NCBI GenBank assembly: GCA_052034935.1 | Contig: JBPOIB010000009.1 | Span: 2,357-66,356 of the forward strand | From: Candidatus Moraniibacteriota bacterium | Lineage (GTDB): Bacteria > Patescibacteriota > Minisyncoccia > Moranbacterales > UBA1568 | Direction of reading: 5' to 3' | DNA length: 64,000 nt | In this document: piece after piece, positions 9,125 through 43,578 of the stretch | Position numbering within the stretch: position 1 is the first letter of the stretch | Layout of the letters: each line of letters begins with the position of its first letter | The notes under the pieces: generated by a model | The model's input: the letters and a program-made list of their open reading frames with translations, nothing else | Told to the model about the DNA's origin: nothing | Database searches by the model: none | Program-made: the position numbers and the translations under genes

Positions 9125-9128
9125 GCCG

Positions 9129-10400
9129 CTATTGTACCAATTCCTGCCGCTTCAGGCTCGGAATGAGCGCTAGAATAAATATGAGAAGGAGACTGATGTG
9201 CAGAGAAAACAAAGCGGTCTCGAATACTGAGTGAGCCAGATACGCCGAAAGTCCGGCAAGAATCGCCGGGGAAAGGGGGTGGGATTTCGAACAGACAACA
9301 GACTGGATCAAGCCGAAAAGAATCCATCCAAAAAAAAGGATAAGTCCCACCAGTCCGAGTTCGGCAGCGACATCGAGAAAGAGATTATGTGCATAGAACG
9401 GGGTCGCTTCCGCAGCAAGCGGATGGTAAAAATTCAGATAATTGCCGATTCCTGTACCGAAAACTGGTTTCTCAGCGATTGCTGATACGGCTCCCTTCCA
9501 GAGAGCTATACGCTCCGTGCTGGACGCATCTTTGAGAGTGAAACTCGTAGAAAATCGTGAAAGTACCGGCTGGCTCAGAATGAGAGCGATAAAAAGCACG
9601 CCGATGAGCAGCGGCAAGTGGCGCTGAAGTGCCGGCCACGGCCGTCTTCGCACCGCTACACCATACATGGCGGCGCCGACTATGAGACCCATATATCCAC
9701 CCCGGGAAAAAGTGAGGATATCTGCCAAGAAAAGCGTCGCCGCGACACTCAAAGCGAGATATTTTGATGTTGATTCGAGGCGAGCAGCACCAAGCGCAAG
9801 AAATCCTGACAAACCGAAGAAAAAAGCAGCCACATGGGGATCGGGAAATACGGCCGTGGTACGCAGCCAGGTTTCGCCACCAATATTGACGAGAAGGCTT
9901 GGGTACTCCGCAACCATGGTAGCAAGCTCTCGCCCTAGAAAGAAGGGGAGGATATTCCCGATAAGGAAGTGGAAAGTCTCGCTTGTCCCGAAAACAAACT
10001 GGGAGAAAAAAATAGTAAGGCCAAGCGTCGCGGCAGCTGTAGCGCCCCAAAGAAGCGACCACAGGCCCTGTCTCATCCGTTTCTTTGACCGAAATTGATA
10101 CTGCCAGATAAAAAATAATGGAAAAAGATTAAAAATGAAGATTATTTTCGGAAAAGCAAGGTCAAATCGGGGCACCCAGAGAAGAGAGGCGGCTACCCAA
10201 AACAGGAATGAGGCAAGTAGCCCCATGGATACCGGGGACGAAAAAGTCCACTCCCGCTTCATGAGTCGCTCGAGGGCAAAGACGATAATAATGCTCAGGG
10301 CGAGACCCCTCGCAAGCGGCAAGTCGAACCCGCCCGGAAAAGGGAGGGCGAATTGAAGCGGAAGACTCGCGATAAGGGCAAGGCTGAGAAAAAAAGACAT
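9129..10400 (-). CDS. O-antigen ligase/Wzy-like polytopic membrane protein (paralogue)
   Basis: polytopic membrane protein similar in architecture to 7859-9124; 4-nt gap to GT2. Confidence 0.55.
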   Translation of the reverse strand: MSFFLSLALIASLPLQFALPFPGGFDLPLARGLALSIIIVFALERLMKREWTFSSPVSMGLLASFLFWVAASLLWVPRFDLAFPKIIFIFNLFPLFFIWQYQFRSKKRMRQGLWSLLWGATAAATLGLTIFFSQFVFGTSETFHFLIGNILPFFLGRELATMVAEYPSLLVNIGGETWLRTTAVFPDPHVAAFFFGLSGFLALGAARLESTSKYLALSVAATLFLADILTFSRGGYMGLIVGAAMYGVAVRRRPWPALQRHLPLLIGVLFIALILSQPVLSRFSTSFTLKDASSTERIALWKGAVSAIAEKPVFGTGIGNYLNFYHPLAAEATPFYAHNLFLDVAAELGLVGLILFFGWILFGLIQSVVCSKSHPLSPAILAGLSAYLAHSVFETALFSLHISLLLIFILALIPSLKRQELVQ

Positions 10401-10403
10401 AGG

Positions 10404-11195
10404 CTATCGGTAACCAAGCACCTTCTGAGCCAAAAGCAAAAGTGCTGACTCGTACCAGGGACGCCATTTTATGAAAAAACGAAGCTGGCTCTTATGAAAA
10501 TGCTTCTTTTGGGCCGGAATCGATCTATGACTCTGGCCGCCGGCATGTAAAAAGCGGAGAAATGGGTAGACGCCGACATAACCACCACGCTCCTTTGCTC
10601 GCCGGGCTAAATCAACGTCTTCAAAATAGAGAAAAAAGTGAGGATCAAAACCATCTAAGGAGTGAAAAAAGTCTTTCTGAATGGCCAGTGCCGCACCGGA
10701 AACCCAGTCTACCGCTTGGACCGCCTTCGCTTCCCAAGGGAAAGGGTGTGGATAAAGTCCAAAATTAGCGCGGAAAAGCGAAGGGAGTCCTGGGTACGCC
10801 CCAGCACTCCACGGTTCACGACTGCCCCCCGGTGTTTCCAGCGCCATTCCATAAATTGCCTTGGGTCGGTAATGGAAGGCGGCGAGAAGGCCGGGGAGAC
10901 TACCCCCCAGAAAAATCGTATCTGGATTGATAAAAAAAAGGAGATTGCCTGCCGCTATCTGACTACCGAGCATATTCGCTCGGCCAAAACCAATATTTCC
11001 CAAAGAATGGACCGTTTTGAGGCGAGGGAAGTCCCGCTTCAACCCTTCAACAAGATCATGCTCAGCACTATCATTATTCACCACGATGTATTCAGCCGAA
11101 AGCCTTGTCTGAGCGAGATATCCTTCCAGACTCGTGAGGCAACGTCGGAGCGATGAAGCACTGCGAAAATTCACTGAAATAAAGCTGATATCCAT
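10404..11195 (-). CDS. glycosyltransferase family 2
   Basis: N-terminal ISVNFRSAS...VVNNDS, DxD-type GT-A fold signature. Confidence 0.7.
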   Translation of the reverse strand: MDISFISVNFRSASSLRRCLTSLEGYLAQTRLSAEYIVVNNDSAEHDLVEGLKRDFPRLKTVHSLGNIGFGRANMLGSQIAAGNLLFFINPDTIFLGGSLPGLLAAFHYRPKAIYGMALETPGGSREPWSAGAYPGLPSLFRANFGLYPHPFPWEAKAVQAVDWVSGAALAIQKDFFHSLDGFDPHFFLYFEDVDLARRAKERGGYVGVYPFLRFLHAGGQSHRSIPAQKKHFHKSQLRFFIKWRPWYESALLLLAQKVLGYR

Positions 11196-11212
11196 GACTT
11201 TTCCCCAATATT

Positions 11213-12064
11213 TTAGAGAGAAACGTCAGTATACGCCCGTTCTACCTCCCGTGCCAAGGGACTGTTTGAAATTATGAGCCGGAGACGATTTTTCACCCTT
11301 CTGAGGAGGTAGTAGCCACGTACCCAGAAGTGCCAGAAGCCGCGGCTCTCCCGAAGGAAAAATTCGGCACTCGAGCGCACCAGCCAGTACAGCTTGGTTG
11401 GGCTTTTTTCGCTCTCTTCGCTGTGATAAACCACGGCCGAAGGAACAATGTACCGCCCAATACCGCAGCGCTTCGCGCGAAGTGAATACTCGGCATCTTC
11501 AGCATAAAGAAAGTACCGCTCGGCGAGAAGGCCAAGTGACCGGATAATTGATGCTGGAATAAAAAGAGCACAGCCAGTAAGAAAATCGGAAGTGAAGGCA
11601 TTTTTTCCCGGAAAACTCTGAAAATGCACTGTTTTCATCCGAAAGAAATCGATTTTCCCACCAGAAAACCAAACTGGCCCACCTGGAGAAGAAAGAATGA
11701 GGGGGGAGAGAATGCTCTTTTCTACATTTGACTGAGCCGCCAATTTAAGTGAGGCGAGGGCCGTCGGAGCGACGATTGTATCATTATTGAGCAACCAGTA
11801 AGCATCACAACTTTTCCCTGTTTCAAAGTAGCGCAGCCCAGCATTCATCCCCCCTGCAAAACCGATATTTTTCGGTAGGCGAAGCGTTTCGATTCTAGGA
11901 AATTTCTCCTTCATCTCTTCTAAGATCTCCGTTTCCCCGCCGTTATCCACAACCAGGATGCGATCTCGTGGTTCAAGCGTCTTTACGAGCGAATCAAGGC
12001 AGGCGGGCAAAACGTGCTCCCCATGGTAGTTCAAGATAATAACCGCGACACGGTACGGGCGCAT
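11213..12064 (-). CDS. glycosyltransferase family 2
   Basis: VAVIILNYHG...VVDNGG GT2 signature. Confidence 0.75.
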   Translation of the reverse strand: MRPYRVAVIILNYHGEHVLPACLDSLVKTLEPRDRILVVDNGGETEILEEMKEKFPRIETLRLPKNIGFAGGMNAGLRYFETGKSCDAYWLLNNDTIVAPTALASLKLAAQSNVEKSILSPLILSSPGGPVWFSGGKIDFFRMKTVHFQSFPGKNAFTSDFLTGCALFIPASIIRSLGLLAERYFLYAEDAEYSLRAKRCGIGRYIVPSAVVYHSEESEKSPTKLYWLVRSSAEFFLRESRGFWHFWVRGYYLLRRVKNRLRLIISNSPLAREVERAYTDVSL

Positions 12065-12070
12065 AGGCCT

Positions 12071-13531
12071 TTAGGCGATAGGGAGAGGATTCGTCGGGGT
12101 TTCATTCTGAGCTTCTTTTGAAGCAAAGACGCTCATCACTTCTGCTGAGGTGACCGCTTTTGTCAGCCAGAGCAGCAAAAGGTATGACACTGCTGCAAGT
12201 ACGAGCGCTACGATGAAGGGGAGGGCTGATGATACAGCAAGAACACCTGCCATTGCACCGGCCGAAAGGAAAATTCTCGGTAATCGATCCGGTTTTGGGA
12301 AAAAACCAAGCGTTTTATAGGCAATCCAGCCCGAGACGATAACGACCAGCATCTCAGTAAAGGCCGAGGAGACCGCTGCGCCAAAGTAAGAGAATTCTCT
12401 GATCAGGAGAGTATTCAGGGTAACGTTGACCACAGCAATAAGTGCAAGCGCCTTGAGGAGCTTCTTTTGAGCGTTACCGACAAGGATGAGCATATTAAAG
12501 TAGTGTCCAAAGAAAATTCCGGCCAGAGAGAAGATGAGGACGCGCAAAACTTCAGCCGAGGCATCGAATCCTGAGCCCGTCACGATTGAAATAATACCTG
12601 GCGAGAGGAAAAGGGTGCCGACAACGATAGGGAGGACGATAGCAATAAAAACTTTCGCTGTTTTTTCTGCAATTTCCCGGAATTCGCGCTCATCGGTCTG
12701 TTTTGCCCGCGAAAGCAGCGGGAGAATAAGCCCAACCAGCATCGCCGGGAAGAAAATAAGATTCTCCATCACTTTATAGGCAACGTTATAGATGCCGACG
12801 TCCGCTGCCGGTTGGAGGAGAGAAAGAATGATCGTATCGAGTTTGAAGTATGCGAAAGTGATGATCGCGGTGAGGCCGAGCGGCCACGCATCATGCATGA
12901 ATATCCGCCAGAAGGCCCGATCAAAGGAGAAGCTGAAGTGAACAAAGGATCGGGAAAGCCAAAGAGAGACAGAAGCATTAAACATCATCGTTAAGAGAAC
13001 AGCGCTTACTATCGCAATAAATCCGAGATCAAATTTCACCGCGAGGTAGATCAGCGTAAACTGGATGATTTTCCCAACAAATTCAACCATCGCCACCCGA
13101 TCCATAGCGAGCCGCTTCTGGAAAATCCCGTTCAAAAGCGTACTGAATTGAGCAAAAAGAAGCGCCACCGTAACGAGCACGATCCCACCCTTCACATGGG
13201 GGGCATAGTGGAAGAACCCGATGATAAGGGGGGCAATCACGATGATCGCAATACTCGCTATCACCCGAAGCCCCGCGACCTTACCGAAGAACTCCGCCTC
13301 GTTCACATCCGGCTTTGCAATCTCGCGAGCCGTAATATTGGCAAGACCGAGATCACCGATTGCACCAAAAAAGGCGAAGAAGGCCAAGACCGTCGCGTAT
13401 TCACCAAAACCCTCCTGTCCGAGGTAGCCGGTAATAAGCCGGATAGAGAGAAGCGCAATGAAAACGGTCGACGTCACCTTGAGCGCCGAGTTAAACACCA
13501 CGTTATAGGCTATTTTTCTCGCCAGCGCCAT
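12071..13531 (-). CDS. polysaccharide/oligosaccharide flippase (Wzx, MOP superfamily)
   Basis: ~12-14 TM helices, Wzx-like; start moved to ATG 13531 (MALARKIAYN) to avoid 68-nt overlap with khpB. Confidence 0.7.
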   Translation of the reverse strand: MALARKIAYNVVFNSALKVTSTVFIALLSIRLITGYLGQEGFGEYATVLAFFAFFGAIGDLGLANITAREIAKPDVNEAEFFGKVAGLRVIASIAIIVIAPLIIGFFHYAPHVKGGIVLVTVALLFAQFSTLLNGIFQKRLAMDRVAMVEFVGKIIQFTLIYLAVKFDLGFIAIVSAVLLTMMFNASVSLWLSRSFVHFSFSFDRAFWRIFMHDAWPLGLTAIITFAYFKLDTIILSLLQPAADVGIYNVAYKVMENLIFFPAMLVGLILPLLSRAKQTDEREFREIAEKTAKVFIAIVLPIVVGTLFLSPGIISIVTGSGFDASAEVLRVLIFSLAGIFFGHYFNMLILVGNAQKKLLKALALIAVVNVTLNTLLIREFSYFGAAVSSAFTEMLVVIVSGWIAYKTLGFFPKPDRLPRIFLSAGAMAGVLAVSSALPFIVALVLAAVSYLLLLWLTKAVTSAEVMSVFASKEAQNETPTNPLPIA

Positions 13532-13541
13532 GTGAAAAACC

Positions 13542-14036
13542 TTAACGGGCTGATTCCTCTTCTTCTGGGCGTTTTTTGATAAGTATCTTCCGCTCCTCAC
13601 CGTTTCCAATACTTTCGGTCGTTACGGTCGGATGAGCCGCAAAAAGGTGATGGATGAGTTTGCGTTCGAATGAAAGCATGGGGCGAAGGGTGGCCGGGAG
13701 TCCTGATTCCTCGACTTCCTTTGCCGCTACGAGAGCCTCACGTTCAAGAAAGACCTTTTTTTCTTGAAAATAGTGATTTACGTCGAGCGAAATTACGCCG
13801 TTCTTGGGCATTTCTTTGCGAACAGCTAATTTCACGATATGGAGCAGCGCCCCGACATTGGCACCATGCTGACCAATCAGGAGGTTTTGCCCATCATGAA
13901 GGGTTATTTCGCCATGATACTCAATTTTTTCATCCGGTAATGCTACTTCGGACACCTTCACCTCTGCATCAAATCCGATCCGTTGAATCAGATCCTTAAT
14001 AGTCACGGTGAGTGTTTGACGAAAGGGCTCATCCAT
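13542..14036 (-). CDS. khpB: RNA-binding protein KhpB/Jag (KH + R3H)
   Basis: KH GxxG (GQHGANVGALL) and C-terminal R3H (RKLIHHLF...GEERK); conserved position after yidC; start at ATG 14036. Confidence 0.7.
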   Translation of the reverse strand: MDEPFRQTLTVTIKDLIQRIGFDAEVKVSEVALPDEKIEYHGEITLHDGQNLLIGQHGANVGALLHIVKLAVRKEMPKNGVISLDVNHYFQEKKVFLEREALVAAKEVEESGLPATLRPMLSFERKLIHHLFAAHPTVTTESIGNGEERKILIKKRPEEEESAR

Positions 14037-14041
14037 AAGTC

Positions 14042-14785
14042 TTACTTCTGGCTTACCAAGGCGTTTTTCGGTTGTTTTGTAAATATCCACTTCTGTTGCG
14101 CCCAGGAAAGGAGCGTCGATACGAACCAATACAGTGAGAGGGCAGCTGGGAACTGAAAGCTGAAGAAGAAAACGAGCGCTGGACCGAGATAGAGCATCTG
14201 CTTTCCCATTATAGCAGCCATATCTGGCATTTCGCCGTCTTTCTTTGGGGTAGCTGCTGTTTGGGGCAGTATCATTTTTGTCTGGAAGTACTGGGCGATT
14301 GCTGCAAGGGCACCGAGAAGCGGACTTGCCTTCAGCATATCGAGAATCCCGAATGCCATATACTTGATTTCTCCCGGATTTTCGACGAAGCCATAGAGGT
14401 CAGCCGCATTGATAATAAGCTTTTTCTCGGAAATATTCATAATCACGTGGTAGAACGTGATGAAAAAAACCAATTGTACGATGAGGGGGAGGCAGCCGGC
14501 AAAGGGGTTCACCTTATTCTCCTTATAGCACTCCATAGTGGCTTTCGTCTGCTTTTCCTTATCCCCCTTATAGCGTTCCTGAATTTCCTTGATTTTCGGC
14601 TGTATTTCCTGCATCCGCTTCTGTTGTTCAATCTGCATGCGGGACAGGGAGAGGAAGGCTCCCTTGATTACCAGTGTGGTCAGAATAATTGCAATACCGA
14701 AGTCTTGAATCGGCAGGTTGGCATAAAAAAATACCACGAGGTTATAGAGTGGCTGATATATGAACGCGTGAAAGACTTCAGTCAT
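14042..14785 (-). CDS. yidC: membrane protein insertase YidC (short form)
   Basis: YidC/Oxa1 TM core; rpmH-rnpA-yidC-jag synteny. Confidence 0.85.
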   Translation of the reverse strand: MTEVFHAFIYQPLYNLVVFFYANLPIQDFGIAIILTTLVIKGAFLSLSRMQIEQQKRMQEIQPKIKEIQERYKGDKEKQTKATMECYKENKVNPFAGCLPLIVQLVFFITFYHVIMNISEKKLIINAADLYGFVENPGEIKYMAFGILDMLKASPLLGALAAIAQYFQTKMILPQTAATPKKDGEMPDMAAIMGKQMLYLGPALVFFFSFQFPAALSLYWFVSTLLSWAQQKWIFTKQPKNALVSQK

Positions 14786-15491: not shown

Positions 15492-15512
15492 CAGTTTCAC
15501 TTGTCTTTACTT

Positions 15513-16946
15513 ATGACTGATGAAGAGCTCTGGAAGGCGGCCCTGGGACAGATAGAACTTTCTCTCTCTCGGGCCAATTTCATTACCTGGTTCAAAAATA
15601 CAACTATTCTCTCTCGGTCTGATGGGCGAGTTGTTATTGGTGTGCCCAATGGGTTTGCAAAAGAGTGGTTAGAGAACAAATACAACCTCTACATCATCAA
15701 GGCTCTCAAGAGCCTTGATCCGAGTATTCAGGATATTAAGTGCTCTATCTCTCCCAGTAATCGCCAGGCCGTAGTAGCCACAGCACCAACAAAATCAATG
15801 GATGTCGCGCGCCCGGCAAGCCAAAATCAAACTACCCCACCCCCAGTACCAAATGGATTCTCTCGGAAACGGATTTCGGAAACACCCGTCACTAATCCTA
15901 ATAGTGGAGAACTTTTCGCGAGCAACCTCAATAAACGCTACACCTTCGAGAACTTCATCGTTGCAGAGAACAATGAGCTCGCTCGAGCCGCCTGTTTCGC
16001 TATTTCTCAGAACCTCGGACACCTCTACAACCCGCTTTTCATCTATGGCGGCGTCGGACTCGGCAAAACCCATCTCCTCCAAGCTCTCGGAAATGAAATC
16101 AATACGAAACATCCCGAAAAAAAGGTAAAATATATCACTTCCGAGCGATTTACAAGCGAACTCGTCGAATCAATCAAGAATCAGACGGTTGACCAGTTCA
16201 AAACAGCCTATGAGCACATTGATCTCCTCATCATCGATGACGTGCAGTTCCTTTCCGGACGCGAGAAAACCCAGAATGAATTTTTCCATATTTTCAACGC
16301 CCTCTATCAGCTCAATAAGCAGATTGTCATTTCAAGCGACCGAACGCCGAAATCCATCCCTACTCTTGAGGAGCGGCTCCGGTCCCGATTCGAAGGTGGA
16401 ATGATCGCTGATATCAGCAAACCAAGCCTCGAGACGCGCGTCGCTATTCTTCAGACCAAAGCCCAGGAAAAAAACATACCAATCGATCAGCCATCCATCC
16501 AATTCATCGCTGAGCATGTCAAAAATAATGTCCGGGAGCTCGAGGGGGCGCTTTCACGAGTCTTGGCCTATAGCGAATTCCAAAAAGTGCCCATTACCCT
16601 CCCACTTGTTCAAAAAGCACTCTCCGATATGATTATTCAGACAAAAAAATCAGTAAAACTTGATGATATTGTCCAAGTAGTCAGTGATTTTTATGGGATT
16701 GCTATTGAGGAGATGGTGAAGAAGGGCCGAAAGAAAGAAGTCGCCCACCCTCGCCAGATTGCCATGTATCTTCTCCGGACCGAGCTCGACACCCCCTTCT
16801 CAACGATCGGAGATTTTTTCGGTGGACGCGATCACACCACTGTTCTCCATGCTGTGGAAAAAGTCACCAAAACTAAAGAGTCTACTACTCGTGTCCGGGA
16901 AGAACTCCACTCGCTTAAGGAAAAACTCCAGGCAGCAGGTGTATAA
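15513..16946 (+). CDS. dnaA: chromosomal replication initiator protein DnaA
   Basis: Walker A GGVGLGKTHLL, AAA+ and C-terminal HTH; ORF-track start 15501 is TTG, first ATG at 15513. Confidence 0.95.
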   Translation: MTDEELWKAALGQIELSLSRANFITWFKNTTILSRSDGRVVIGVPNGFAKEWLENKYNLYIIKALKSLDPSIQDIKCSISPSNRQAVVATAPTKSMDVARPASQNQTTPPPVPNGFSRKRISETPVTNPNSGELFASNLNKRYTFENFIVAENNELARAACFAISQNLGHLYNPLFIYGGVGLGKTHLLQALGNEINTKHPEKKVKYITSERFTSELVESIKNQTVDQFKTAYEHIDLLIIDDVQFLSGREKTQNEFFHIFNALYQLNKQIVISSDRTPKSIPTLEERLRSRFEGGMIADISKPSLETRVAILQTKAQEKNIPIDQPSIQFIAEHVKNNVRELEGALSRVLAYSEFQKVPITLPLVQKALSDMIIQTKKSVKLDDIVQVVSDFYGIAIEEMVKKGRKKEVAHPRQIAMYLLRTELDTPFSTIGDFFGGRDHTTVLHAVEKVTKTKESTTRVREELHSLKEKLQAAGV

Positions 16947-17159: not shown

Positions 17160-18284
17160 ATGAAACTCTCATGTACTCAGGAAAATCTTCGGATAGCACT
17201 CTCATCACTCGAACGTATCGTTGGAAAACAAAGTACTCTGCCGATACTAAGCAATATCCTGCTTGAAACAGAGCGGGGTCAACTTCGGCTTTCTGCGACG
17301 AATCTTGAAATCGGGGTTATTACCTCGATTGGTGCAAAAATCGAAGCAGAGGGGAAAATAACCGTACCGGCGAAATTGCTCATAAATTTCATCCAGAATC
17401 TGGCTGGTGATCAGATTGTCGGAATTGAACAAATAGGAACGCAGGTTGTGCTCGAAAGCGGAAATTACCGGGTGAAAATTAATGGTCTTGATAGTAAGGA
17501 TTTTCCCATCATCCCGGAAAAGTCGGGTGGTCATACCTTTACTATTCAGTCGGAACTACTCCGTCAGGGACTCCAGCGAACACTCTTCTGTGTCTCGCTT
17601 AATGAAAGCCGTCCTGAATTGACAGGTGTGTTGATGAATATTAAAGAAGGGGATGTTTTTCTGGTCGCGACAGATAGTTTTCGTCTAGCCGAGTGGCATT
17701 CCCAAGGGGCGGCTCAGTGGGAAGGTGAGGAAATGACTGAGTTGTCTGTCATTATTCCGAACTATACCCTTCAGGAGGTATTGCGCGTCATGTCTCAGCC
17801 GACAGAAGGAGTTCAGGTAACGCTCGAAGAAAATCAGGTCTTCTTCGAATTAGGCAGTACGCGCATTGTTTCTCGTCTCATAAACGGCCGTTTTCCTGAA
17901 TACCAGGCGATTTTGCCGAAGCAATATACAATGGATGTAACCGTCACTCAGGAAGATCTTCAACGTGCACTCAAAATGGCGACGTCCTTCTCGGTCTATA
18001 GTTCCGGCGAAGTCACTTTTCAGCTGAATTCCGAAGAAGGACGACTTGAAATTGCTTCCCAATCCCAGGGTATCGGAGAACAGATAGCCAAAATCCCTTT
18101 TACAGGAACCGTAACGGAACCGCTTCAGATCGTATTCAGCCCGAGATATATCCTCGAAGGAGTCTCAGCACAACGGGGTGAAGAAATCATCCTTTCGATG
18201 AATTCATCAAGCACACCAGTTCGGATATCATCAGATGCTGAACGGGCAAGCTATCTTTACATCGTGATGCCGATTCGGAAATAA
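17160..18284 (+). CDS. dnaN: DNA polymerase III beta sliding clamp
   Basis: N-terminal MKLSCTQENLRIALSSLERIV...LSNILLE; 374 aa; follows dnaA. Confidence 0.9.
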   Translation: MKLSCTQENLRIALSSLERIVGKQSTLPILSNILLETERGQLRLSATNLEIGVITSIGAKIEAEGKITVPAKLLINFIQNLAGDQIVGIEQIGTQVVLESGNYRVKINGLDSKDFPIIPEKSGGHTFTIQSELLRQGLQRTLFCVSLNESRPELTGVLMNIKEGDVFLVATDSFRLAEWHSQGAAQWEGEEMTELSVIIPNYTLQEVLRVMSQPTEGVQVTLEENQVFFELGSTRIVSRLINGRFPEYQAILPKQYTMDVTVTQEDLQRALKMATSFSVYSSGEVTFQLNSEEGRLEIASQSQGIGEQIAKIPFTGTVTEPLQIVFSPRYILEGVSAQRGEEIILSMNSSSTPVRISSDAERASYLYIVMPIRK

Positions 18285-18292: not shown

Positions 18293-18592
18293 ATGCGCTC
18301 GCTGCGAGATTTTATCGGGAAGAGAGAGGGTAATTTCCATATTTCCCAACTCGATGATAAGACAGTGTTTTTTCTTTTTCGGAAGATTATCCGTGAAGAA
18401 TACGGGAATCGGGGAGTGAACGAACTGTCACCGGTTATTTTTTCCGAAGGGGTGCTCTCTATTAAAGCGAGTAATCCGCTGTACTCGAACGAGCTCTGGA
18501 TGCGACGTGAGATGCTTATCGAGCAAATGAACCGGGAGCTCGGTGAAGCGGGGATTCTCGAGATACGGCTTGTCCGTTATGACGGTCAATAG
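18293..18592 (+). CDS. small DUF721/DciA-like protein often found after dnaN
   Basis: 99 aa; position and size consistent; weak sequence evidence. Confidence 0.4.
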   Translation: MRSLRDFIGKREGNFHISQLDDKTVFFLFRKIIREEYGNRGVNELSPVIFSEGVLSIKASNPLYSNELWMRREMLIEQMNRELGEAGILEIRLVRYDGQ

Positions 18593-21177
18593 GCGACAGA
18601 GACGCTCCCGCTTGCTTCAGCGGTATTCCCGTTTTTATCCTCGACCGTTACTTTGATATCGAGGGTAGAATTGTTCTGGTCTCCAGGGATGCTGTAGTCA
18701 ATGGTGTAAGGTTTCTCGCTCCTCTCGCCCACGATGTCACCTTCTACTCGGAAAATGACCTTGGCGACCCCGTAAGGGGCATTTACGTTCGTTTTGAGCA
18801 AGAGAGTGCTGGAGTTGGATGAACCAGGGAGGTCGAGACTGATTGATGGGCGGTACTTCTTAAAATCGTCTTCGCTACAGTCCTTTTCAGGTGCTTCTTC
18901 AGCTACAGTCCCTTTCTGTTTCTTGTACCAATCCTTCACCGCCTTCTCCCAGTTCTTATACTGGCTATCACTTTCCGGCTTCTCTGGTTCATCCCCGCGG
19001 GGGTCATCGCGCTTCACATAGTGGAGGATATCGTGCGGTTCGACAAAGTCGCGCTTCTTCACTTCCCCTTCCGGGCAGTATTTGTTCGCGAGGCAGTATT
19101 TATCGTCTTCTCCGGGAATCTCACAAACCTTCAAATCCTTCTTATCTTCAAGTTTTCCACCAACCATTGGCTTGTTGATATCCTCCTTTTCATACTTCGG
19201 AAAGCGCTCAATTGCATAGTTGGTAAGTGTCTTATCAAGAAAGGCACGCCAGATTGGGGCGGCGACCACAACACCGTCAGCCCCCTCGGCCATGGGACTA
19301 TTGTCATTGTTGCCCGCCCAAACACCCACCGCGAGCGACGGTGTAAATCCAAGTGTCCACCCATCGCGGAATTCGTTTGTTGTACCAGTCTTCGCTGCGA
19401 CGTCTCGGTCATCAAAGCGTAAGGGGCTATTTTCCCCGAAGGCAGGGGTGCGATAGCTATTCGTCGACATGATGTGTTCAAGCATTGTTACATACTTTTC
19501 TTCGATCACTCGCTCACCCGGTCCGCTCTGGAATTCTTCGAGGATAGTACCTTTAGAATCTTCAATCCGGAGGATGGCAGAAAGGGGTTGTTTTATTCCT
19601 CCAGTTGCGAGAGTTGCATAGGCGTGGACATGATCGAGCAGTTTCACTTCGCCGCCGCCGAGAACGAGCGAGAGCCCGAGTCGGTCCGGGTCATTGAGTC
19701 CCTGGACACCGAGTCGCTTAGCGGTCTCAATCGAATCTTTCACTCCAGCAAGATAGAGTGTCTTTACTGCTGGAACATTGAGCGACTGGGCAAGTGATTC
19801 AGCCATCGAGAGGGGACCGCGGAATTTCCCATCATAGTTCTGAGGCTTGTAGCTTTTTTTTTCATCAGCAGTCTCGAATTCGGTCTCGACATCATACATG
19901 AGTGTCTCGGGGGTGTAACCCTTGGTAAAGGCCGTCAGGTAAACATAGGGCTTGAAAGATGATCCTGGCTGCCGGTCACGGATAGTCACGTTCACCTGGC
20001 CGTCGATAGCGGTATCAAAATAGTCTTTCGAACCGACCATAGAGAGAATTTGTCCGCTCTTTGGATCGATAGCCACCAGAGCGGCATTCTTCGCTTTTTG
20101 ACGAATATTCTTTTCAGCTCCGCCCCGAACAGCCTCTTCTGCAATCTGTTGCTTATCCCAATCAAGGGTTGTTATAACACGGTAGCCGCCCTCCTCAACT
20201 GCTCGATCACCATATTTCTCCTGGAGATAGTCTTTGATGTACATGACAAAATGGGGTGCAGCAATGATATCTTTCTGTGGAGCGAGCTTGCCGAGCGTAT
20301 CGGCATTGATCGCTTCCTCAGCCTGTTCATCAGTAATATAGCCGAGCCTTGCCATCTGACGAAGGGCGTAACTTTGGCGGCCAGAAAGGGCTTCCGTATG
20401 CGAACCATAGGGAGAATAAAAAGTCGTCGCTTGGGGCAGGGCCGAAAGGAGGGCAGCTTCGTCAAGACCGAGTTCGCGGGCTGATTTTCCGAAGAATGTC
20501 TGCGCGGCTGCCTCAATGCCGTAGGCATTCGAGCCATACGGAATCTCATTCAGATACATCTCGAGAATTTCGTCCTTAGAATATTTTGTTTCGAGCTCGA
20601 TTGCGAGGATAACCTCTTTGATCTTCCGCGAGAGAGCCTTCTCGTTGGTGAGCAGGGTATTCTTGACGAGCTGCTGGGTGATAGTTGACCCGCCCTCGGC
20701 CTTTTCGAGGGTGATGATGTCTTTAAATAAGGCCCGCGCAATCGAAGAGAGCTTTATCCCGAAGTGGTTGTAGAAGTCTTGGTCTTCAAGTGAAATAGTG
20801 GCATATTTCACCACGTCCGGCATCCCGGAGAGAGGAATGACGGTGCGTTTTTCCTCACCATGGACTTCGTAGAGGAGTTGAGTACCAGAGCGGTCGTAAA
20901 TTTTTGTCGATTCGGCCACGAACCGATCTCGGACATTGCCGGGCGAGGGGAGATCTTTAGCGATATAGAGGAAGAGCCCAACGATACCGAGAAAACCGAT
21001 ACCACCAAGAATAGCCAGAACTTTTGCCGCTTTCTTCCAAGGAAACCGTTTTTTCGGCCCCTGATTAGCACTCACAATTTCAATCGCCGGCTTGCGCCGG
21101 AAACTCGGCCGAGAAAATATTGATTTTTGGCTGAAATAAAGCATAAAGAAGATGGTAATCTGTCTCATGTATACCAT
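18586..21177 (-). CDS. class A penicillin-binding protein (PBP1A; glycosyltransferase + transpeptidase) with C-terminal extension
   Basis: GT51 motifs EDQDFYNHFGI and GGSTITQQLVKN; transpeptidase SxxK region; N-terminal TM anchor. Confidence 0.85.
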   Translation of the reverse strand: MVYMRQITIFFMLYFSQKSIFSRPSFRRKPAIEIVSANQGPKKRFPWKKAAKVLAILGGIGFLGIVGLFLYIAKDLPSPGNVRDRFVAESTKIYDRSGTQLLYEVHGEEKRTVIPLSGMPDVVKYATISLEDQDFYNHFGIKLSSIARALFKDIITLEKAEGGSTITQQLVKNTLLTNEKALSRKIKEVILAIELETKYSKDEILEMYLNEIPYGSNAYGIEAAAQTFFGKSARELGLDEAALLSALPQATTFYSPYGSHTEALSGRQSYALRQMARLGYITDEQAEEAINADTLGKLAPQKDIIAAPHFVMYIKDYLQEKYGDRAVEEGGYRVITTLDWDKQQIAEEAVRGGAEKNIRQKAKNAALVAIDPKSGQILSMVGSKDYFDTAIDGQVNVTIRDRQPGSSFKPYVYLTAFTKGYTPETLMYDVETEFETADEKKSYKPQNYDGKFRGPLSMAESLAQSLNVPAVKTLYLAGVKDSIETAKRLGVQGLNDPDRLGLSLVLGGGEVKLLDHVHAYATLATGGIKQPLSAILRIEDSKGTILEEFQSGPGERVIEEKYVTMLEHIMSTNSYRTPAFGENSPLRFDDRDVAAKTGTTNEFRDGWTLGFTPSLAVGVWAGNNDNSPMAEGADGVVVAAPIWRAFLDKTLTNYAIERFPKYEKEDINKPMVGGKLEDKKDLKVCEIPGEDDKYCLANKYCPEGEVKKRDFVEPHDILHYVKRDDPRGDEPEKPESDSQYKNWEKAVKDWYKKQKGTVAEEAPEKDCSEDDFKKYRPSISLDLPGSSNSSTLLLKTNVNAPYGVAKVIFRVEGDIVGERSEKPYTIDYSIPGDQNNSTLDIKVTVEDKNGNTAEASGSVSVAY

Positions 21178-21207: not shown

Positions 21208-22194
21208 TTATGCTGTCGGCAGACCGAAATAGATGCGGAGGATTTCTTCCGCTGCGTCGAATCCAGGGCGGTTCACCGGATTCTGATGGAGGGAAAGGTC
21301 TGGTCCGCCGTTGATTTCGATGATGACTCCGCCAGTTTCGACGAGCGGCCGGCCGATATCTTCGGTAATGACATCAATGCCGGCGACGTTGAGGTAAATT
21401 GCCTTGGCAGCGTCGAGGAAGACCTTCCGGTTCGCTGGATGGACCTGATCGGTAACATCGATTGCGGCTCCCCCGTGGGAAATCGGTGCGATGAGGTAGA
21501 GGGGAACGCGGATTCCGGGTGCCGGCACCATAGAAAGGGTTAGTTCCTGCTCCCCGAGGATAGAAATAAGCTCCGGTTTGATCGGGATAGGGTAGAGCTC
21601 GGATTCAGAGGTGAGGGTACGGTTATGGGATTCGATCAGCGTGAGTATGGTGTCGCGGCCATTGCCGACCAGTGTCGGTGGGATATATTCAGCAACTGCG
21701 ATGATGTGCCCCTCGAAAACGAGAATTCGGTATTCTTTACCGCGGATCTTTTTTTCCGCCAATACGTAAGTGAATTCTTTTTTGATCGCTTCATAGGCGG
21801 TGACCGCTGATTCGAGCGAGGGGAGCATCCCGTGAACGCCTTTTCCGACCGTGCTCGCGAGCGGCTTCAAGAGGATATCCCCCTTATGCTTTTCGTAAAA
21901 AGCGGCCAGTTCAGTCGAATCGGAGATAAGGAGTTGGTCAGTTGTAGGGAGTTTCTCTTGCCGGAGGATTTCATTGGTACTTGCCTTATCGGCCGCGATC
22001 TTCATCCCAATAAAAGAAGTGGAAAGAATCGTTGCCCCGAGGGTAAAGAGCTCTTTTTCTCCGTTGGAAATGCGGAAGACGGAACGGCGTTTTTCAGTAC
22101 CGCCCTTGATGGAGGCATACGGCGCTACTGTTAGGTCGAGTCGTTTTGCAGCCTGAAAAAACCCAAATTTTGAGGGAGTGTTAGAGTCGGGCAT
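21208..22194 (-). CDS. stand-alone cyanophycin-synthetase-N-domain-like ATP-grasp ligase
   Basis: KEYRILVFEGHIIAVAEYIPPTLVGNGRDTILTLIE and GGAAIDVTDQVHP...IIEINGGPDL closely parallel CphA ATP-grasp motifs; no Mur-ligase-like C-terminal half. Confidence 0.6.
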   Translation of the reverse strand: MPDSNTPSKFGFFQAAKRLDLTVAPYASIKGGTEKRRSVFRISNGEKELFTLGATILSTSFIGMKIAADKASTNEILRQEKLPTTDQLLISDSTELAAFYEKHKGDILLKPLASTVGKGVHGMLPSLESAVTAYEAIKKEFTYVLAEKKIRGKEYRILVFEGHIIAVAEYIPPTLVGNGRDTILTLIESHNRTLTSESELYPIPIKPELISILGEQELTLSMVPAPGIRVPLYLIAPISHGGAAIDVTDQVHPANRKVFLDAAKAIYLNVAGIDVITEDIGRPLVETGGVIIEINGGPDLSLHQNPVNRPGFDAAEEILRIYFGLPTA

Positions 22195-22207
22195 AGGTGT
22201 TTTAGTA

Positions 22208-22236
22208 GAAAAATAAAAAACGCCCAGGAGCGTTTG
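22208..22236 (-). terminator. intrinsic terminator downstream of GT4 gene
   Basis: AAACGC/GCGTTT stem; on minus strand followed by UUUUUUAUUUUU. Confidence 0.45.
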
Positions 22237-22341
22237 GAGAGGATCATCTTAAGCAGGCCTTGAGAGCATCCCTAAACGTCTAAAAAATATATCATAAAAC
22301 AATGAAAATGTAAATAGTTTTAATATGGATGACCAGTATTG

Positions 22342-23370
22342 TTATTGAGGAAGATGTGACTTTATAACAGATGAGTAAAAATCAATGTACGATTGGGCCA
22401 TCTGCTCCGCGCTGAATTTTTCTTCGGCATACCGCCGGCAGGCAGGCCGACTGAGCTGGTCCGTATGTTTGGTTGCCTGGATGAGCTCATTCAGATCATC
22501 TGAGAGAAAAGAGACGGCTGGATCGCTGAGTACTTCAGGGAGCGGATCTACCCGACTGCCGATAACGGGCGTGCCGCAGGCCAGTGCTTCTGCCGAAACT
22601 CGTCCGAATGTTTCTGGGCGGACAATCGGAAAAAGGAGGGCCTCCGAGTGGCGGAGTAAGTCAAGGAGCTCTTGATTGGGGAGATTATCGATAGCCTTGA
22701 TTTGTGAGCCGTCGATAAAAGGCAGGACCTCTTTCTCGTAGTATGCTTGGCGCTCATCCGAATTCCCCACTCGGCCAATAATAGTCAGTGTTTTCCCCGC
22801 TCCTCGAGCAATCGCGATTGCTCGGTGGATGCCCTTCTGCTCAGTGATGCGTCCGACGGTGATCAATCCCTTGCCTGGTGCGTAGGAGGGGGTGATTTTC
22901 GATACCGGAATACCTGGGTGAATGAACGCATCTGCACCAGTGATCTCCTGCTGCTGTTTGGTCAACGCGACAACCCGGACTGGAGTCGTTCGAATGAGTC
23001 GCATGTCTCTCTCGGCTATCTTGTTGTGGAGCGTCAGTACGGTCGGCACGGAAAGGTGTCGAGAAATGCTGTAGGCATAGCGTTGAGATGAGAGATGGAC
23101 GATATCAAACTCATTCTGATGAGAAATCACCTCGAGCTGGCTGCCGATAATCAAATTTGCTCGCTCCTGATCGGTCTGCTCCTTGAAGTCAGGCATGGAC
23201 CAGAGGCTGGTAGGAAGAATGGGATGGATCTTCGCTCGAGTGGGAAAGTTGGCAGGAGCAAACAGTGTGACGTCTACGCCGGCGTCAGTGAGAGCGTCGG
23301 CGAGCTGAATCGTCCCGAGCTCTGGCCCACCCGTCTCCCCAAACACCGGTGAAACAATGGCTACTCGCAT
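22342..23370 (-). CDS. glycosyltransferase family 1 (GT4-type)
   Basis: MRVAIVSPVFGETGGPE N-terminus and C-terminal E-x7-E-type GT-B features. Confidence 0.75.
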   Translation of the reverse strand: MRVAIVSPVFGETGGPELGTIQLADALTDAGVDVTLFAPANFPTRAKIHPILPTSLWSMPDFKEQTDQERANLIIGSQLEVISHQNEFDIVHLSSQRYAYSISRHLSVPTVLTLHNKIAERDMRLIRTTPVRVVALTKQQQEITGADAFIHPGIPVSKITPSYAPGKGLITVGRITEQKGIHRAIAIARGAGKTLTIIGRVGNSDERQAYYEKEVLPFIDGSQIKAIDNLPNQELLDLLRHSEALLFPIVRPETFGRVSAEALACGTPVIGSRVDPLPEVLSDPAVSFLSDDLNELIQATKHTDQLSRPACRRYAEEKFSAEQMAQSYIDFYSSVIKSHLPQ

Positions 23371-24320
23371 AAGGTGAGTAATTTTTTAGCATGGTCCAGA
23401 CGGACTTTTTCTGGAGCGACGAGCCGGAGAAGATCGAACCCCGGAGTTGTGTTCATTTCAATAAAGATAGGCGTGCCCTCTGGAGTGAACATAAAGTCGA
23501 GCGAGTAATGGGCCCTTTCAAAATGTCGTAACGGGGCCATGATGGATTCCGCTGCCTCCATGCAAGCCGCGGGAATCTTCTCATGAGGAACGAGCACGGC
23601 ATTCGCACCCTGATGGAAGTTCGTAAAGAGCGATCCCTTCTTGGCAATTCTTGAGAGCGCGTAGACAAGTCGGTGATTGATGAATACGAGCCGGAGATCG
23701 GCCACCTCCTCTTTTTGGGAAAAGCTGGGAACTCCAGCGGTTGGAATAAATTCTTGGACGATAACGGGAAAAGCGAATGTTTCCTTGAGGAGCTCTGATT
23801 TTTCACCGATGGCCACCTCTTTTCCGCCTGAGCCATAAAGCAGCTTGACCACCACTTTCGATGACCGTATCTTTTCAACCGCACTCATGAACTGTCCTTG
23901 ATTCTCGGCTAGAAAGGAGGTCGGCATCCATTCGCGGAAGATCAAGTACTGATGGAACTTATTATCGAAGAGCGTCCGGAACGTCGGGGAATTGATAAAG
24001 GGTGTCTGCAAAGACATAACCATTTTCTTTTCAAACAGAGCGTAGTCGTATTTCCCGGCGACCTTGTCGAAGAATGCGTTCGGTCGAGGTGGATGTTCTT
24101 TTTTCTCCCAACACCCTGAAGAGAATGTCCAGGCGCGAGAAAACAACCCGGTCGTCTCGTTATACCAGTCGATATGGGCGCGATAGACATCCCATCCTTG
24201 GGTCGCTGAAAAGGTATAGAATTCTTCGAACGAGATGCGCGTTTCGGGCGAGCCCTGAAGCGGAACAATGTCGCCCCAGTCGTCTTCGTTATAGAGAATG
24301 AAGAGCGCTTTCTGAGCCAT
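23361..24320 (-). CDS. ATP-grasp ligase (YheC/YheD- or RimK-like)
   Basis: Lys + Gly-rich loop KLLYGSGGKEV, hinge QEFIP, DLRLVFINHRLVY, Mg-binding FIEMNTTPGF. Confidence 0.55.
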   Translation of the reverse strand: MAQKALFILYNEDDWGDIVPLQGSPETRISFEEFYTFSATQGWDVYRAHIDWYNETTGLFSRAWTFSSGCWEKKEHPPRPNAFFDKVAGKYDYALFEKKMVMSLQTPFINSPTFRTLFDNKFHQYLIFREWMPTSFLAENQGQFMSAVEKIRSSKVVVKLLYGSGGKEVAIGEKSELLKETFAFPVIVQEFIPTAGVPSFSQKEEVADLRLVFINHRLVYALSRIAKKGSLFTNFHQGANAVLVPHEKIPAACMEAAESIMAPLRHFERAHYSLDFMFTPEGTPIFIEMNTTPGFDLLRLVAPEKVRLDHAKKLLTLCE

Positions 24321-24332
24321 AACGAGGAGGTC

Positions 24333-25748
24333 TTATTTTGTTACATCAACCAGGAAATTTCCGAGGTTCCGGCGGCCGATAATGGCGCGGTACTGGAGAC
24401 TGGAACGATCGACAACAGTCGGATTTGCTAAAATTTCCTGCCCGTCGATAAGAAGCTTAAGGCCGACCTTCGGCCGCATACTGACGCCGTTTGAGGCATA
24501 GACGAACACGATATCCTTGAGATCCGGTATATCTGACCGCAGGTACCTCTTTTTGAGGTCTTCCCGGGCTTTTTCCCCAGCCTCTTGGTTCTCTGGCTGC
24601 ACTGGCTCGATGGTATCAAAGTATTCGAGTACCGGCGTGAACCCGAGTTCTTCAGCGAGGGCGCGATCAATCGCACTGGAATCCGCACCAGTGTCGATTT
24701 TCGCTTCGATCTCGACTTCCTTTCCGTCTTTGCCGACGAGTTTTACCTTCTCGACCGAGCCGATGACATGCTTGCCGGAGAGCCCCTCGATGTTCTCTTC
24801 GATTTCTCCGCCGAAGAGATTCATCCCGACGCGCACGCCGTGGTCGACGCTTTTGATCTTCACGCCTTTTACGCGTTCGAGCCGTTCTTTCAGTCCTGCC
24901 ATGTTGGCGAGCTGAATTGAGAGTCCAGGGCGGGCATTGAGCTCGAGGATGACGGGACCAGCGTCACGGTCGATGGCGATATCGGCACCGAGGAAGCCGA
25001 GGCCGGAGACTTCCTGAGCCTTCACAGCCATCGTAAGAATGTCTTTCCAACGAGGAATCTTGATACCAGAGAGGAGAAGCCGGGTCTCGGGAACGTACTC
25101 GAGGAGCCGCCCCTTTCCGACGATAGCGGTCGTCGTCGTCCCGTTGGCCATGTCGATCCCGACACCGATCGCTCCCTGGTGGAGGTTCGCTTTACCGCCG
25201 GAATCCTTGGTTGGGAGGCGAAGCATCGCCATCACTGGTACGCGATTGAAAGTGATGATGCGGATATCAGGGATACCCTTCCAGGTGTAGGGCTTGAAGA
25301 GCTTGAGGAGCTTGAGCCGTTCTTCGAAAAAAGCGACGTCCGGCTTATTGGAAAGGGAGAAGGATCCATCAAGGATGTTCTGGATGTGGCTCTTAATATC
25401 AGCAACCGTGATGAGACTACCATCAGCCTTTACCCAGGCATCATCGCGCCCCTTTTTACGCGCGTAGACAACCACAATGCCTTCGCCTCCGAAGCCACGA
25501 TTTGGTTTCAGGGCGAAACTGTCGGGCAGCGTCTGCCAGTTGAACACTTCAAGTTCTTCAGCTGACTTGATCTTCGCAATGAGCGCGGAGACCGGCAACC
25601 CATTCTTTTTCAATACGACTTTACAACGGAGTTTCTGATCTGCCATCCGCCGACCACGGGCATGATTATACCGCCGTACATAATCGAGGTTGCGGGCGTT
25701 CATCCCGAGGAGAGTGCGGCTTTGAGCGAGCCAGTCGAAAAAAGACAT
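24333..25748 (-). CDS. alpha-L-glutamate-ligase-like (RimK-family) ATP-grasp fused to C-terminal retropepsin-like DUF785 (RimB-like) domain
   Basis: ATP-grasp: KVVLKKNGLPVS, FALKPNRGFGGEGIVVV, ILELNARPGL; C-terminal EAKIDTGADSSAID ... RAIIGRRNLGNFLVDV matches DUF785 pattern. Confidence 0.6.
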   Translation of the reverse strand: MSFFDWLAQSRTLLGMNARNLDYVRRYNHARGRRMADQKLRCKVVLKKNGLPVSALIAKIKSAEELEVFNWQTLPDSFALKPNRGFGGEGIVVVYARKKGRDDAWVKADGSLITVADIKSHIQNILDGSFSLSNKPDVAFFEERLKLLKLFKPYTWKGIPDIRIITFNRVPVMAMLRLPTKDSGGKANLHQGAIGVGIDMANGTTTTAIVGKGRLLEYVPETRLLLSGIKIPRWKDILTMAVKAQEVSGLGFLGADIAIDRDAGPVILELNARPGLSIQLANMAGLKERLERVKGVKIKSVDHGVRVGMNLFGGEIEENIEGLSGKHVIGSVEKVKLVGKDGKEVEIEAKIDTGADSSAIDRALAEELGFTPVLEYFDTIEPVQPENQEAGEKAREDLKKRYLRSDIPDLKDIVFVYASNGVSMRPKVGLKLLIDGQEILANPTVVDRSSLQYRAIIGRRNLGNFLVDVTK

Positions 25749-25766
25749 AGAAAAAGCGAAAAAGGA

Positions 25767-26426
25767 CTAGGACTCCTGTTTCAAGATATGGCGGAAGCGG
25801 AAAAGCTCCACGAGCCGCAGTCCCGTCCATTTGCCGAGACCGATGTTGATGACAAAGGTAACGAGAATTGCCCAAGGGTAGTGGAGGAAGAATTCTCGGA
25901 GCGCCGGCCAGCCGATGACGAAGTAACCAACGATGGAAATGATGAGTGTTTCACCAGCGAGGATGAGGGCAGTTTTTGACCCCTGCTCGATTTGGGTTGC
26001 GATGAATTTCTCGGCGAGGGTAATCATGATGAGGAGCGGAAAGATGTCGACCGCTGCGAGGCCGGTCCGTTTCAGTGAGGCACCGAGTGCGAGGATGCCA
26101 AGAATCATGAGCGAGATAATCGAGAGCGTGATGGCGACGCGAGGGAGGTAGAGGAGGCGGAAGGCACGGAGAAGGTAACGCGAGAGAATACCCATGCCGA
26201 TGACCGCAAAAAATATCGCGATGCCGTACTTCAACCCCTTTTCTCCAAAGGCAAGAAAGGCGAACGTGATGATTGATGGCGTGTAGATGCCGAAAGCCTT
26301 GATCCCAACGATTTGCCGAAAGAAGGCGACGAGGGTCGCGATAACTGGCAGCATGAGGAGGAGATAAACCGTTTCGAGCGGCACGCCTTCAGTCACAAAG
26401 TAATTGATGATGGGATGATAGTTCAT
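25767..26426 (-). CDS. 7-TM membrane protein (7TM_transglut-like, typical partner of alpha-L-glutamate-ligase-like ATP-grasp)
   Basis: seven hydrophobic helices in 219 aa; 18-nt gap to downstream ATP-grasp gene. Confidence 0.5.
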   Translation of the reverse strand: MNYHPIINYFVTEGVPLETVYLLLMLPVIATLVAFFRQIVGIKAFGIYTPSIITFAFLAFGEKGLKYGIAIFFAVIGMGILSRYLLRAFRLLYLPRVAITLSIISLMILGILALGASLKRTGLAAVDIFPLLIMITLAEKFIATQIEQGSKTALILAGETLIISIVGYFVIGWPALREFFLHYPWAILVTFVINIGLGKWTGLRLVELFRFRHILKQES

Positions 26427-43574: not shown

Positions 43575-43578
43575 CCTT

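Follow-up and report, generated by a model that had tools for sequence, protein, structure and literature searches.

An Rlo-like module of ATP-grasp ligases, a fused retropepsin, and a 7TM protein in Patescibacteria, with a variable accessory cassette

What do three ATP-grasp ligases, a protease, a glycosyltransferase, and a seven-helix membrane protein make when they are encoded side by side in a bacterium? A block of such genes lies in the DNA analyzed here, a 64,000-nucleotide stretch (hereafter, the window) of contig JBPOIB010000009.1 from a Candidatus Moraniibacteriota bacterium. Between positions 18586 and 26426, every long open reading frame (ORF) is on the minus strand, and six co-directional genes follow one another in the order 7TM, fusion, AG2, GT4, AG3, and PBP1A:

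25767–26426, minus strand: 7TM membrane protein, 219 amino acids (PF14402)
24333–25748, minus strand: ligase–protease fusion, 471 amino acids, an RloC-type ATP-grasp ligase joined to an RloA/RimB-type retropepsin
24867–25694, minus strand: ATP-grasp domain of the fusion, residues 19–294 (PF14397)
24336–24776, minus strand: retropepsin-like domain of the fusion, residues 325–471 (from a profile comparison with the PDB)
23361–24320, minus strand: AG2, second ATP-grasp protein, 319 amino acids, of RimK/GshB/TTL/YheCD type
22342–23370, minus strand: GT4 glycosyltransferase, 342 amino acids, soluble; its first 10 nt overlap the end of AG2
22208–22235, minus strand: terminator-like hairpin with T-run, in the GT4–AG3 gap (22195–22341)
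21208–22194, minus strand: AG3, stand-alone ATP-grasp protein, 328 amino acids, homologous to the CphA1 G domain
18586–21177, minus strand: class A penicillin-binding protein (PBP1A), 863 amino acids, with Transgly and Transpeptidase domains

A preliminary description of this DNA had proposed an operon-like minus-strand block of four tightly spaced products. The ORFs are found at the coordinates it gave, with 18 nt between the 7TM and fusion genes, 12 nt between the fusion and AG2, and the 10-nt overlap between AG2 and GT4. A gap of 147 nt separates GT4 from AG3, and one of 30 nt separates AG3 from PBP1A. Upstream, ruvC ends 9 nt before the 7TM gene, and the block is thus not isolated. The closest homologues, up to 96% identical, are in metagenome-assembled genomes (MAGs) of Candidatus Moranbacteria. 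The comparisons described below show that the block is an uncharacterized, Patescibacteria-wide variant of the recently named Rlo system, and that it carries a variable accessory cassette.

The Constant Core

The RloABC system of Pseudomonas aeruginosa was named by Lormand et al. (2025, mBio; PMC12239564). It consists of a secreted retropepsin, RloA, an inactive transglutaminase with a 7TM region, RloB, and an ATP-grasp protein, RloC. RloA and RimB cut poly-Glu chains of at least eight residues, and deleting either rloB or rloC suppresses the defects that a triple protease mutant shows in hypo-osmotic tolerance, antibiotic sensitivity, biofilm formation, and cell shape (PMC12239564). Since the loss of either gene relieves the defects of protease-less cells, RloA removes what RloB and RloC make. 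Reported RloB matches are predominantly (96%) from Proteobacteria (PMC12239564).

The window holds the same three elements in one locus: a ligase of the ATPgrasp_ST/TIGR02291 type, a PF14402 7TM protein, and a DTGA retropepsin of the RloA/RimB family. Their arrangement differs, however. The protease forms the C-terminal part of the ligase polypeptide and lacks a signal peptide, whereas RloA is a stand-alone, secreted protein; the 7TM protein lacks the periplasmic inactive transglutaminase domain, in place of which some relatives carry a PKD domain; the core is followed in Patescibacteria by one to four extra ligases and sometimes by GT4, YdjC, or MATCAP; and the host is a Patescibacterium. Because none of the three proteins reaches its NCBIfam cut-off, we call the module Rlo-like in mechanism rather than a member of the RloABC equivalogs. 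The preliminary description had regarded the arrangement as not belonging to any described system. This no longer applies to the three-part core, which received its name in 2025 (PMC12239564), but it stands for the fused and expanded form, on which our literature search found no paper. A search for literature on 7TM_transglut, ATPgrasp_ST, DUF1704, and MATCAP in combination with ATP-grasp likewise returned nothing on this system. Database sequences are abundant and are automatically annotated as "sugar-transfer associated ATP-grasp" and "7TM domain-containing protein". PF14397 and PF14402 were reportedly defined by Iyer et al. in 2009 (Mol Biosyst), who may already mention these associations.

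The first protein of the core had been taken for a seven-helix membrane protein, and this is borne out by seven hydrophobic segments and by a match to PF14402 (7TM_transglut, positions 57–247) of 101.9 bits (cut-off 25, E-value 5.2e-29). Against the RloB model NF052267, it aligns with positions 305–507 of 508 (4.1e-23) and scores 81.9 bits, far short of the cut-off of 900; it corresponds to the seven-helix half of RloB only, without the inactive transglutaminase domain. An AlphaFold2 model of the protein is all helical, with a mean predicted local distance difference test score (pLDDT) of 84.4. A Foldseek search with this fold gave no match below an E-value of 0.28, and thus neither an informative solved relative nor a transporter assignment. 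Two related loci (L093, 8476–10029, and L167, 3436–4980) encode 7TM proteins of about 515 amino acids with an N-terminal PKD domain where RloB has its transglutaminase, suggesting that the outward-facing domain of these proteins is interchangeable. At the other end, relatives keep the motif GLRxxE(Y/L)xRFR in the cytoplasmic tail, while the extreme C-terminus is variable and basic. This pattern suggests that the GLRxxEYxRFR tail helix is a docking site and not an acceptor. The protein's own C-terminus was considered as a tail acceptor and was rejected, since only the helix that precedes its variable and basic end is conserved.

The fusion had been described as a RimK-type ATP-grasp ligase joined to a retropepsin-like domain. 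The fusion itself and the DTGA domain were confirmed; the RimK assignment was not, the ligase being of the RloC/ATPgrasp_ST type. Residues 19–294 match PF14397 (ATPgrasp_ST) with 227 bits (cut-off 31.4, 3.5e-67), and the score against TIGR02291, the RloC equivalog model, is 288.8 bits (4.4e-86), slightly below the cut-off of 314.2. True TIGR02291 members score 321–440 bits and are 40–43% identical to the fusion. The TIGR00768 (RimK family) score, in contrast, is only 34.2 bits versus a cut-off of 143.4. The Mg-binding residues are D256, E269, and N271, and the D...E-x-N metal site is retained in all three ligases of the block. An AlphaFold2 model of the fusion (pLDDT 82.6), in which the ligase domain is most similar to the structures of ArgX/LysX, RimK, and CphA1, supports the proposed architecture, as do thousands of full-length homologues. 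An exact-sequence look-up of the protein itself returned no record. No signal peptide or transmembrane segment was predicted in the fusion, and it is therefore expected to be cytoplasmic; AG2, GT4, and AG3 also lack both.

Recognition of the protease domain required more than a single sequence. A search of the PDB with the fusion alone yielded no protease match, and the C-terminal domain alone gave weak matches to RloA3 (7.7e-7), PF05618 (4.3e-5), and Asp_protease_2 (1.3e-4). The fusion scores 23.9 bits against PF05618, below the cut-off of 27, which more distant fusion proteins exceed (38.1 and 37.3 bits), and 29 bits against the RloA model NF052264 (cut-off 210). A profile built from 15 diverse copies of the domain matched the RloA-type structures 9g58 (1.8e-9) and 9g59 (2e-8), and 2pma (7.7e-7), followed by DDI1 and ApRick. 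The DTGA motif occupies residues 352–355 (coordinates 24684–24695). D352-T-G-A, an IIGRRN motif, K350, R425, and R448 are invariant across 39 closer homologues, and of these residues, D352, R425, and R448 do not vary in 15 more distant sequences either. Alignment to 9g58, combined with the published numbering, equates D352, K350, R425, and R448 with RloA D48, K46, R114, and R137, of which K46, R114, and R137 hold the poly-Glu substrate (PMC12239564). The window retropepsin thus retains the poly-Glu-binding K/R/R residues of RloA. The domain searches thus recovered the ATP-grasp, retropepsin, and 7TM assignments on which the preliminary description depended.

The Accessory Cassette

AG2 had been assigned to the YheC/D or ATPgrasp_ST type. 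It matches both (YheCD, 7e-7; ATPgrasp_ST, 8e-8), but the strongest match is to RimK (1.1e-12); GSH-S_ATP (1e-6) and TTL (8e-4) follow, and the match to RimK structures is at 6.6e-5. An E-M-N motif is found at residue 288. Neither AG2 (51.3 bits) nor AG3 (39.5 bits) reaches the TIGR00768 cut-off of 143.4. The GT4 assignment was upheld, as both domains score above their cut-offs (Glycos_transf_1, 1.1e-14, 54.8 bits versus 26.4; Glyco_transf_4, 7e-8, 33.1 bits versus 28.5). The best solved relative is the glucosylsucrose synthase TeGSS (7fg9, 1e-35), which aligns over the full length, is equal in size, and has no membrane segment either; tetrahydrobiopterin glucosyltransferase and BshA come next. 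These nearest solved relatives are soluble enzymes with small acceptors, from which the window GT4 differs in being translationally coupled to an ATP-grasp ligase.

The third ligase, AG3, had been likened to the N domain of cyanophycin synthetase. Instead, it aligns with positions 182–469 of the 871 in the cyanophycin synthetase model NF010623 (1.6e-65; 221.8 bits, cut-off 877) and with the G (ATP-grasp) domain of solved CphA1 (6e-40), and has no N or M domain. Its other matches are to N-acetylglutaminylglutamine synthetase (1.5e-33) and the GshAB ATP-grasp (1.8e-32), and an E-I-N motif is present at residue 293. The homology of AG3 spans the entire G domain, the part that elongates the backbone of the peptide, but without the primer-anchoring N domain and the Mur-ligase-like M domain AG3 cannot make cyanophycin unaided. 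Next in line, as had been described, is a class A penicillin-binding protein, identified by its Transgly (2.9e-59, 199.9 bits) and Transpeptidase (1.3e-21, 77.5 bits) domains and a transmembrane segment at residues 49–74. It is a conserved neighbor, and adjacency does not imply membership in the module.

The hairpin reported ahead of AG3 is present at 22235–22208, as a 7-pair GC-containing stem (−6.6 kcal/mol) followed by a T-run, about 13 nt before the AG3 start. A promoter-like site lies at 22314–22286, about 50 nt upstream of the hairpin, and an Rfam search of the 147-nt gap revealed no family, riboswitch, or known RNA. In the related locus L164, a gene for a divergent 262-amino-acid protein with weak ATP-grasp similarity (L164, 3787–4575) occupies the position of this gap. 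The gap may therefore represent either a scar left by a deletion or a leader that regulates AG3.

We compared two sets of related loci. The Moranbacteria set comprised 80 species-representative loci with fusions 58–89% identical, 61 of which had enough downstream sequence; the distant set comprised 80 metagenomic loci 38–48% identical to a distant fusion, of which 62 were scored upstream and 43 downstream. The gene order ruvB-bPH-yebC-(trmB)-ruvC-7TM-fusion-[slot]-PBP1A was found in all 80 Moranbacteria loci. Greedy gene calling under-counts the 7TM gene in this set (60/76). A direct ORF search placed it immediately 5' of the fusion gene in every Moranbacteria locus with upstream sequence; the same was true of 58 of the 62 distant loci. 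At least one extra ATP-grasp gene follows the fusion in 56/61 Moranbacteria and 39/43 distant loci (95 of 104 in total), including loci without the ruvC/PBP1A synteny. The linkage anticipated from the window alone was thus found to be conserved.

The content of the slot, however, varies. In Moranbacteria, it ranges from none to about six genes, drawn from AG2-type ligases (in one copy, two copies, or as a 630-amino-acid tandem fusion), AG3-type ligases, RimK proper, GT4, a YdjC deacetylase, and a MATCAP/TIGR02421 carboxypeptidase; the last two have no match anywhere in the window. Distant loci add 500-amino-acid ATP-grasp_3 proteins, a full-length CphA-like gene, a Mur-ligase-like gene, and a methyltransferase. 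The CphA-like gene (L095, 13331–15892) encodes an ATP-grasp domain with Mur-ligase M and C domains, and stands beside two ATP-grasp genes and a MATCAP gene. GT4 was present in only 8 of the 104 loci, each time directly after an AG2-type gene. PBP1A was found within seven genes in 61/61 Moranbacteria versus 17/43 distant loci, and ruvC was upstream in 27/62 distant loci. We conclude that the 7TM and fusion genes are the constant core, that GT4, YdjC, and MATCAP are occasional accessories, and that PBP1A adjacency is lineage synteny and no constant of the module. Two small ORFs were tried as substrate candidates and rejected: a 66-amino-acid ORF of L003 is the N-terminal piece of a split GT4, and a 90-amino-acid ORF of L001 has no family match and is not conserved. 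Many MAGs among L004–L083 are titled "uncultured Bdellovibrionales bacterium", a label at odds with their gene content and nearest relatives.

Several components are also joined covalently. A fusion survey with 2013 matches among 50%-identity representatives revealed the ligase–protease alone (about 470 amino acids, down to 38% identity), a ligase–protease–MATCAP fusion (about 790 amino acids, in many clusters), a ligase–protease–YdjC fusion (688 amino acids), a fusion of ligase–protease with a second ATP-grasp (926 amino acids), and a fusion with the ligase behind the 7TM module (538 amino acids). The sources of the triple fusions are Gracilibacteria, Dojkabacteria, and other Patescibacteria. 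The neighborhoods of these fusions again contain RimK-like ligases; two of the three also have a 7TM gene, with PBP1A or MreB close by.

The cassette is exchanged between close relatives. L164 carries the order fusion-AG2-GT4-(262-amino-acid weak ATP-grasp)-AG3-PBP1A, with fusion and PBP1A 96% identical to those of the window, but its AG2 is only 42%, its GT4 45%, and its AG3 84% identical. In a comparison with L164, L018, and L051, the AG2 and GT4 of the window were closest (55–59%) to genomes whose core is only 66% identical, and relatives with 86–89% identical cores have a tandem AG2 fusion and YdjC instead. The 42–45% identity amid 96%-identical flanks indicates that the AG2–GT4 sub-module was replaced by recombination. 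The preliminary description had treated the glycosyltransferase and the two further ligases as parts of a single system; given the rarity of GT4, the changing slot contents, and the exchange between near-identical strains, that set is not a fixed one. A recombining cassette suggests a strain-variable, probably surface-exposed product.

Beyond PBP1A and convergent with it, dnaA (15501–16946), dnaN (17160–18284), and dciA (18293–18592) lie on the plus strand, and the cumulative GC-skew minimum is at about 16–20 kb of the window. The ligase block thus adjoins the replication origin, with its genes pointing towards it. On the far side of dnaA, a run of minus-strand genes (7859–14785), which includes a Wzx/MurJ-like polysaccharide flippase gene (12071–13609), may be a surface-polysaccharide cluster. 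Elsewhere, genes for RuvA, a FemAB-family peptidyltransferase (43492–44586), and a Mur ligase (44602–45873) are grouped at 43002–45873; in some relatives (L003, L022, L033), these genes come straight after PBP1A. A single tRNA (55288–55374, plus strand) is the sole Rfam match above the gathering score in the 64-kb window.

What the Module May Make

The explanation that we favor, and that we judge about evenly poised between right and wrong, is that the block is the Patescibacteria (Candidate Phyla Radiation, CPR) form of the Rlo/Rim ATP-grasp writer-plus-eraser peptide systems, which would synthesize and trim, at the membrane, an acidic peptide that resembles poly-Glu and is possibly glycosylated. 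An envelope-directed peptide tailing or poly-amino-acid product is the best inference as to its purpose. According to such a scheme, the cytoplasmic RloC-like half of the fusion would activate a terminal carboxylate and add acidic residues, most likely L-Glu, to yield an oligo- or poly-alpha-amino-acid chain, and the fused retropepsin would cut long acidic chains, thereby controlling their length or releasing them. Further residues would be added by the other ligases, the RimK/TTL-like AG2 and AG3, which resembles the G domain of CphA, an enzyme that adds Asp to the C-terminal end of a peptide. The small, soluble GT4 might put a sugar on the product or on a primer. The 7TM protein would hold the ligase at the membrane and most likely pass the product to the outside face; this export step is suggested by Pseudomonas genetics, where the protease is periplasmic and the ligase cytoplasmic, and by the 7TM–ligase fusions. 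The occurrence of ligase, endopeptidase, and deglutamylase-type carboxypeptidase as one polypeptide points to a chain rich in Glu. RimK is described as making poly-alpha-Glu. Besides removing C-terminal Tyr, MATCAP/TMCP enzymes shorten poly-Glu (PMC10499314), and this deglutamylase activity fits a Glu-rich product as well.

Several points weigh against this explanation. No product, substrate, or primer was identified, and the amino-acid specificity of the three ligases is not readable from sequence. A protease fused to a cytoplasmic enzyme, unlike secreted RloA, implies cytoplasmic trimming, and this makes the export step less plausible. The fusion scores below the curated cut-offs of the TIGR02291, RloA, and RloB models, and the terminator-like hairpin may keep AG3 off the transcript of the upstream genes.

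Cytoplasmic trimming is what would be expected if the module tailed proteins in the manner of RimK/RimB or the tubulin code, an explanation we consider somewhat unlikely. The ligases would then extend the C-terminus of a cellular protein, for example a ribosomal protein, with a tail rich in Glu and a cap; the fused retropepsin, together with MATCAP in relatives, would remove the tail, and the 7TM protein would only anchor or regulate the enzymes. A cytoplasmic ATP-grasp paired with a cytoplasmic poly-Glu-trimming retropepsin is indeed common to RimK–RimB and the window, where the protease domain, joined to its ligase, lacks a signal peptide. The best structural matches of the fusion ligase include RimK, which acts on RpsF, and LysX/ArgX, which act on the LysW tail. 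MATCAP and TTL-like matches are to protein-tail enzymes: TTL/TTLL and MATCAP/TMCP are ATP-grasp ligases that build or cap Glu-rich tubulin tails and carboxypeptidases that remove Tyr or Glu from them. In addition, rplJ/rplL frequently neighbor distant loci. However, RimK and RimB are two separate proteins without a membrane partner, whereas the 7TM protein is constant and, in some lineages, fused to the ligase. Nothing in the window indicates S6 as a target, MATCAP is found only in relatives of the window, the TTL similarity of AG2 is weak (8e-4), a tubulin-like substrate is missing, the locus has no conserved gene for a candidate substrate, and the extreme C-terminus of the 7TM protein is not conserved. 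The proximity to ribosomal genes is housekeeping synteny confined to part of the loci, and cassette swaps between near-identical strains would be unusual for the modification of a housekeeping protein.

The adjacent PBP1A raises the prospect that the product is a modified peptidoglycan precursor, which appears unlikely. Here, membrane-docked ligases would add amino acids to lipid II, or to a different lipid-linked precursor of the wall, on the inner side of the membrane, and GT4 or YdjC would alter its sugar; the modified precursor would be polymerized by PBP1A, and the peptidases would edit the added tails. ATP-grasp ligases that decorate stem peptides do exist, an example being D-aspartate ligase. 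The presence of PBP1A after the block in 61/61 Moranbacteria loci, and near it in other Patescibacteria including a Gracilibacteria genome, favors such a role, as does MreB next to some loci. Moreover, rlo mutants of Pseudomonas show phenotypes in cell shape and with beta-lactams, and in Vibrio, the orthologues belong to the VxrAB cell-wall regulon (PMC12239564). Yet PBP1A is not in the neighborhood in 26/43 distant loci, and its adjacency in the others may therefore be synteny inherited beside ruvC and dnaN. The conserved module also contains no Mur, MraY, or flippase gene, and peptidases of the poly-Glu type have no known role on stem peptides. A small soluble compound rather than a polymer, i.e., an osmolyte or thiol-like glyco-peptide of the N-acetylglutaminylglutamine amide (NAGGN), glutathione, or bacillithiol kind, is distinctly improbable. 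It would accommodate the AG3 matches to N-acetylglutaminylglutamine synthetase and GshAB, the AG2 match to GSH-S_ATP, GT4 relatives that act on sucrose, tetrahydrobiopterin, and malate, and the link of Rlo to osmotic stress, but it leaves unexplained the constant 7TM partner, an endopeptidase that in RloA needs at least eight Glu residues, and the MATCAP fusions, and GT4 and AG3 are dispensable in most loci. Finally, the genes might be unrelated and held together by synteny near the replication origin. The ruvB-yebC-ruvC...PBP1A-dnaN region is syntenic throughout Moranbacteria, and the hairpin sets AG3 apart from the upstream genes. Nonetheless, domain fusions join the components in other lineages, the 7TM–fusion–ligase linkage outlasts the loss of flanking synteny, and the core has a homologue in the rlo operon, which has been validated genetically. 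Natural fusions together with conserved linkage thus make the absence of a functional unit very unlikely, and this explanation was already disfavored.

If the block is a Patescibacteria form of the Rlo/Rim systems, a further step can be contemplated, which we consider possible but doubtful: the constant core and the recombining cassette of ligases, GT4, YdjC, and MATCAP may write, and also erase, an acidic (glyco)peptide that varies from strain to strain and sits on the envelope or on precursors of the wall destined for the neighboring PBP1A. This would amount to a non-ribosomal "peptide code" written by tubulin-code enzyme families, and would identify the Rlo product of Pseudomonas and Vibrio. 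The retention of three to six ATP-dependent ligases beside the replication origin in very small genomes argues for an important function, and cassette exchange among near-identical strains suggests a surface trait relevant to interactions with hosts or phages. The compact fused enzymes are also convenient material for biochemistry. In Pseudomonas, Rlo affects osmotic tolerance, antibiotic sensitivity, biofilm formation, and cell shape, and the Patescibacteria form offers independent comparative clues to the Rlo product, among them that the 7TM protein alone, without a transglutaminase, is the constant partner and that a class A penicillin-binding protein is a frequent neighbor.

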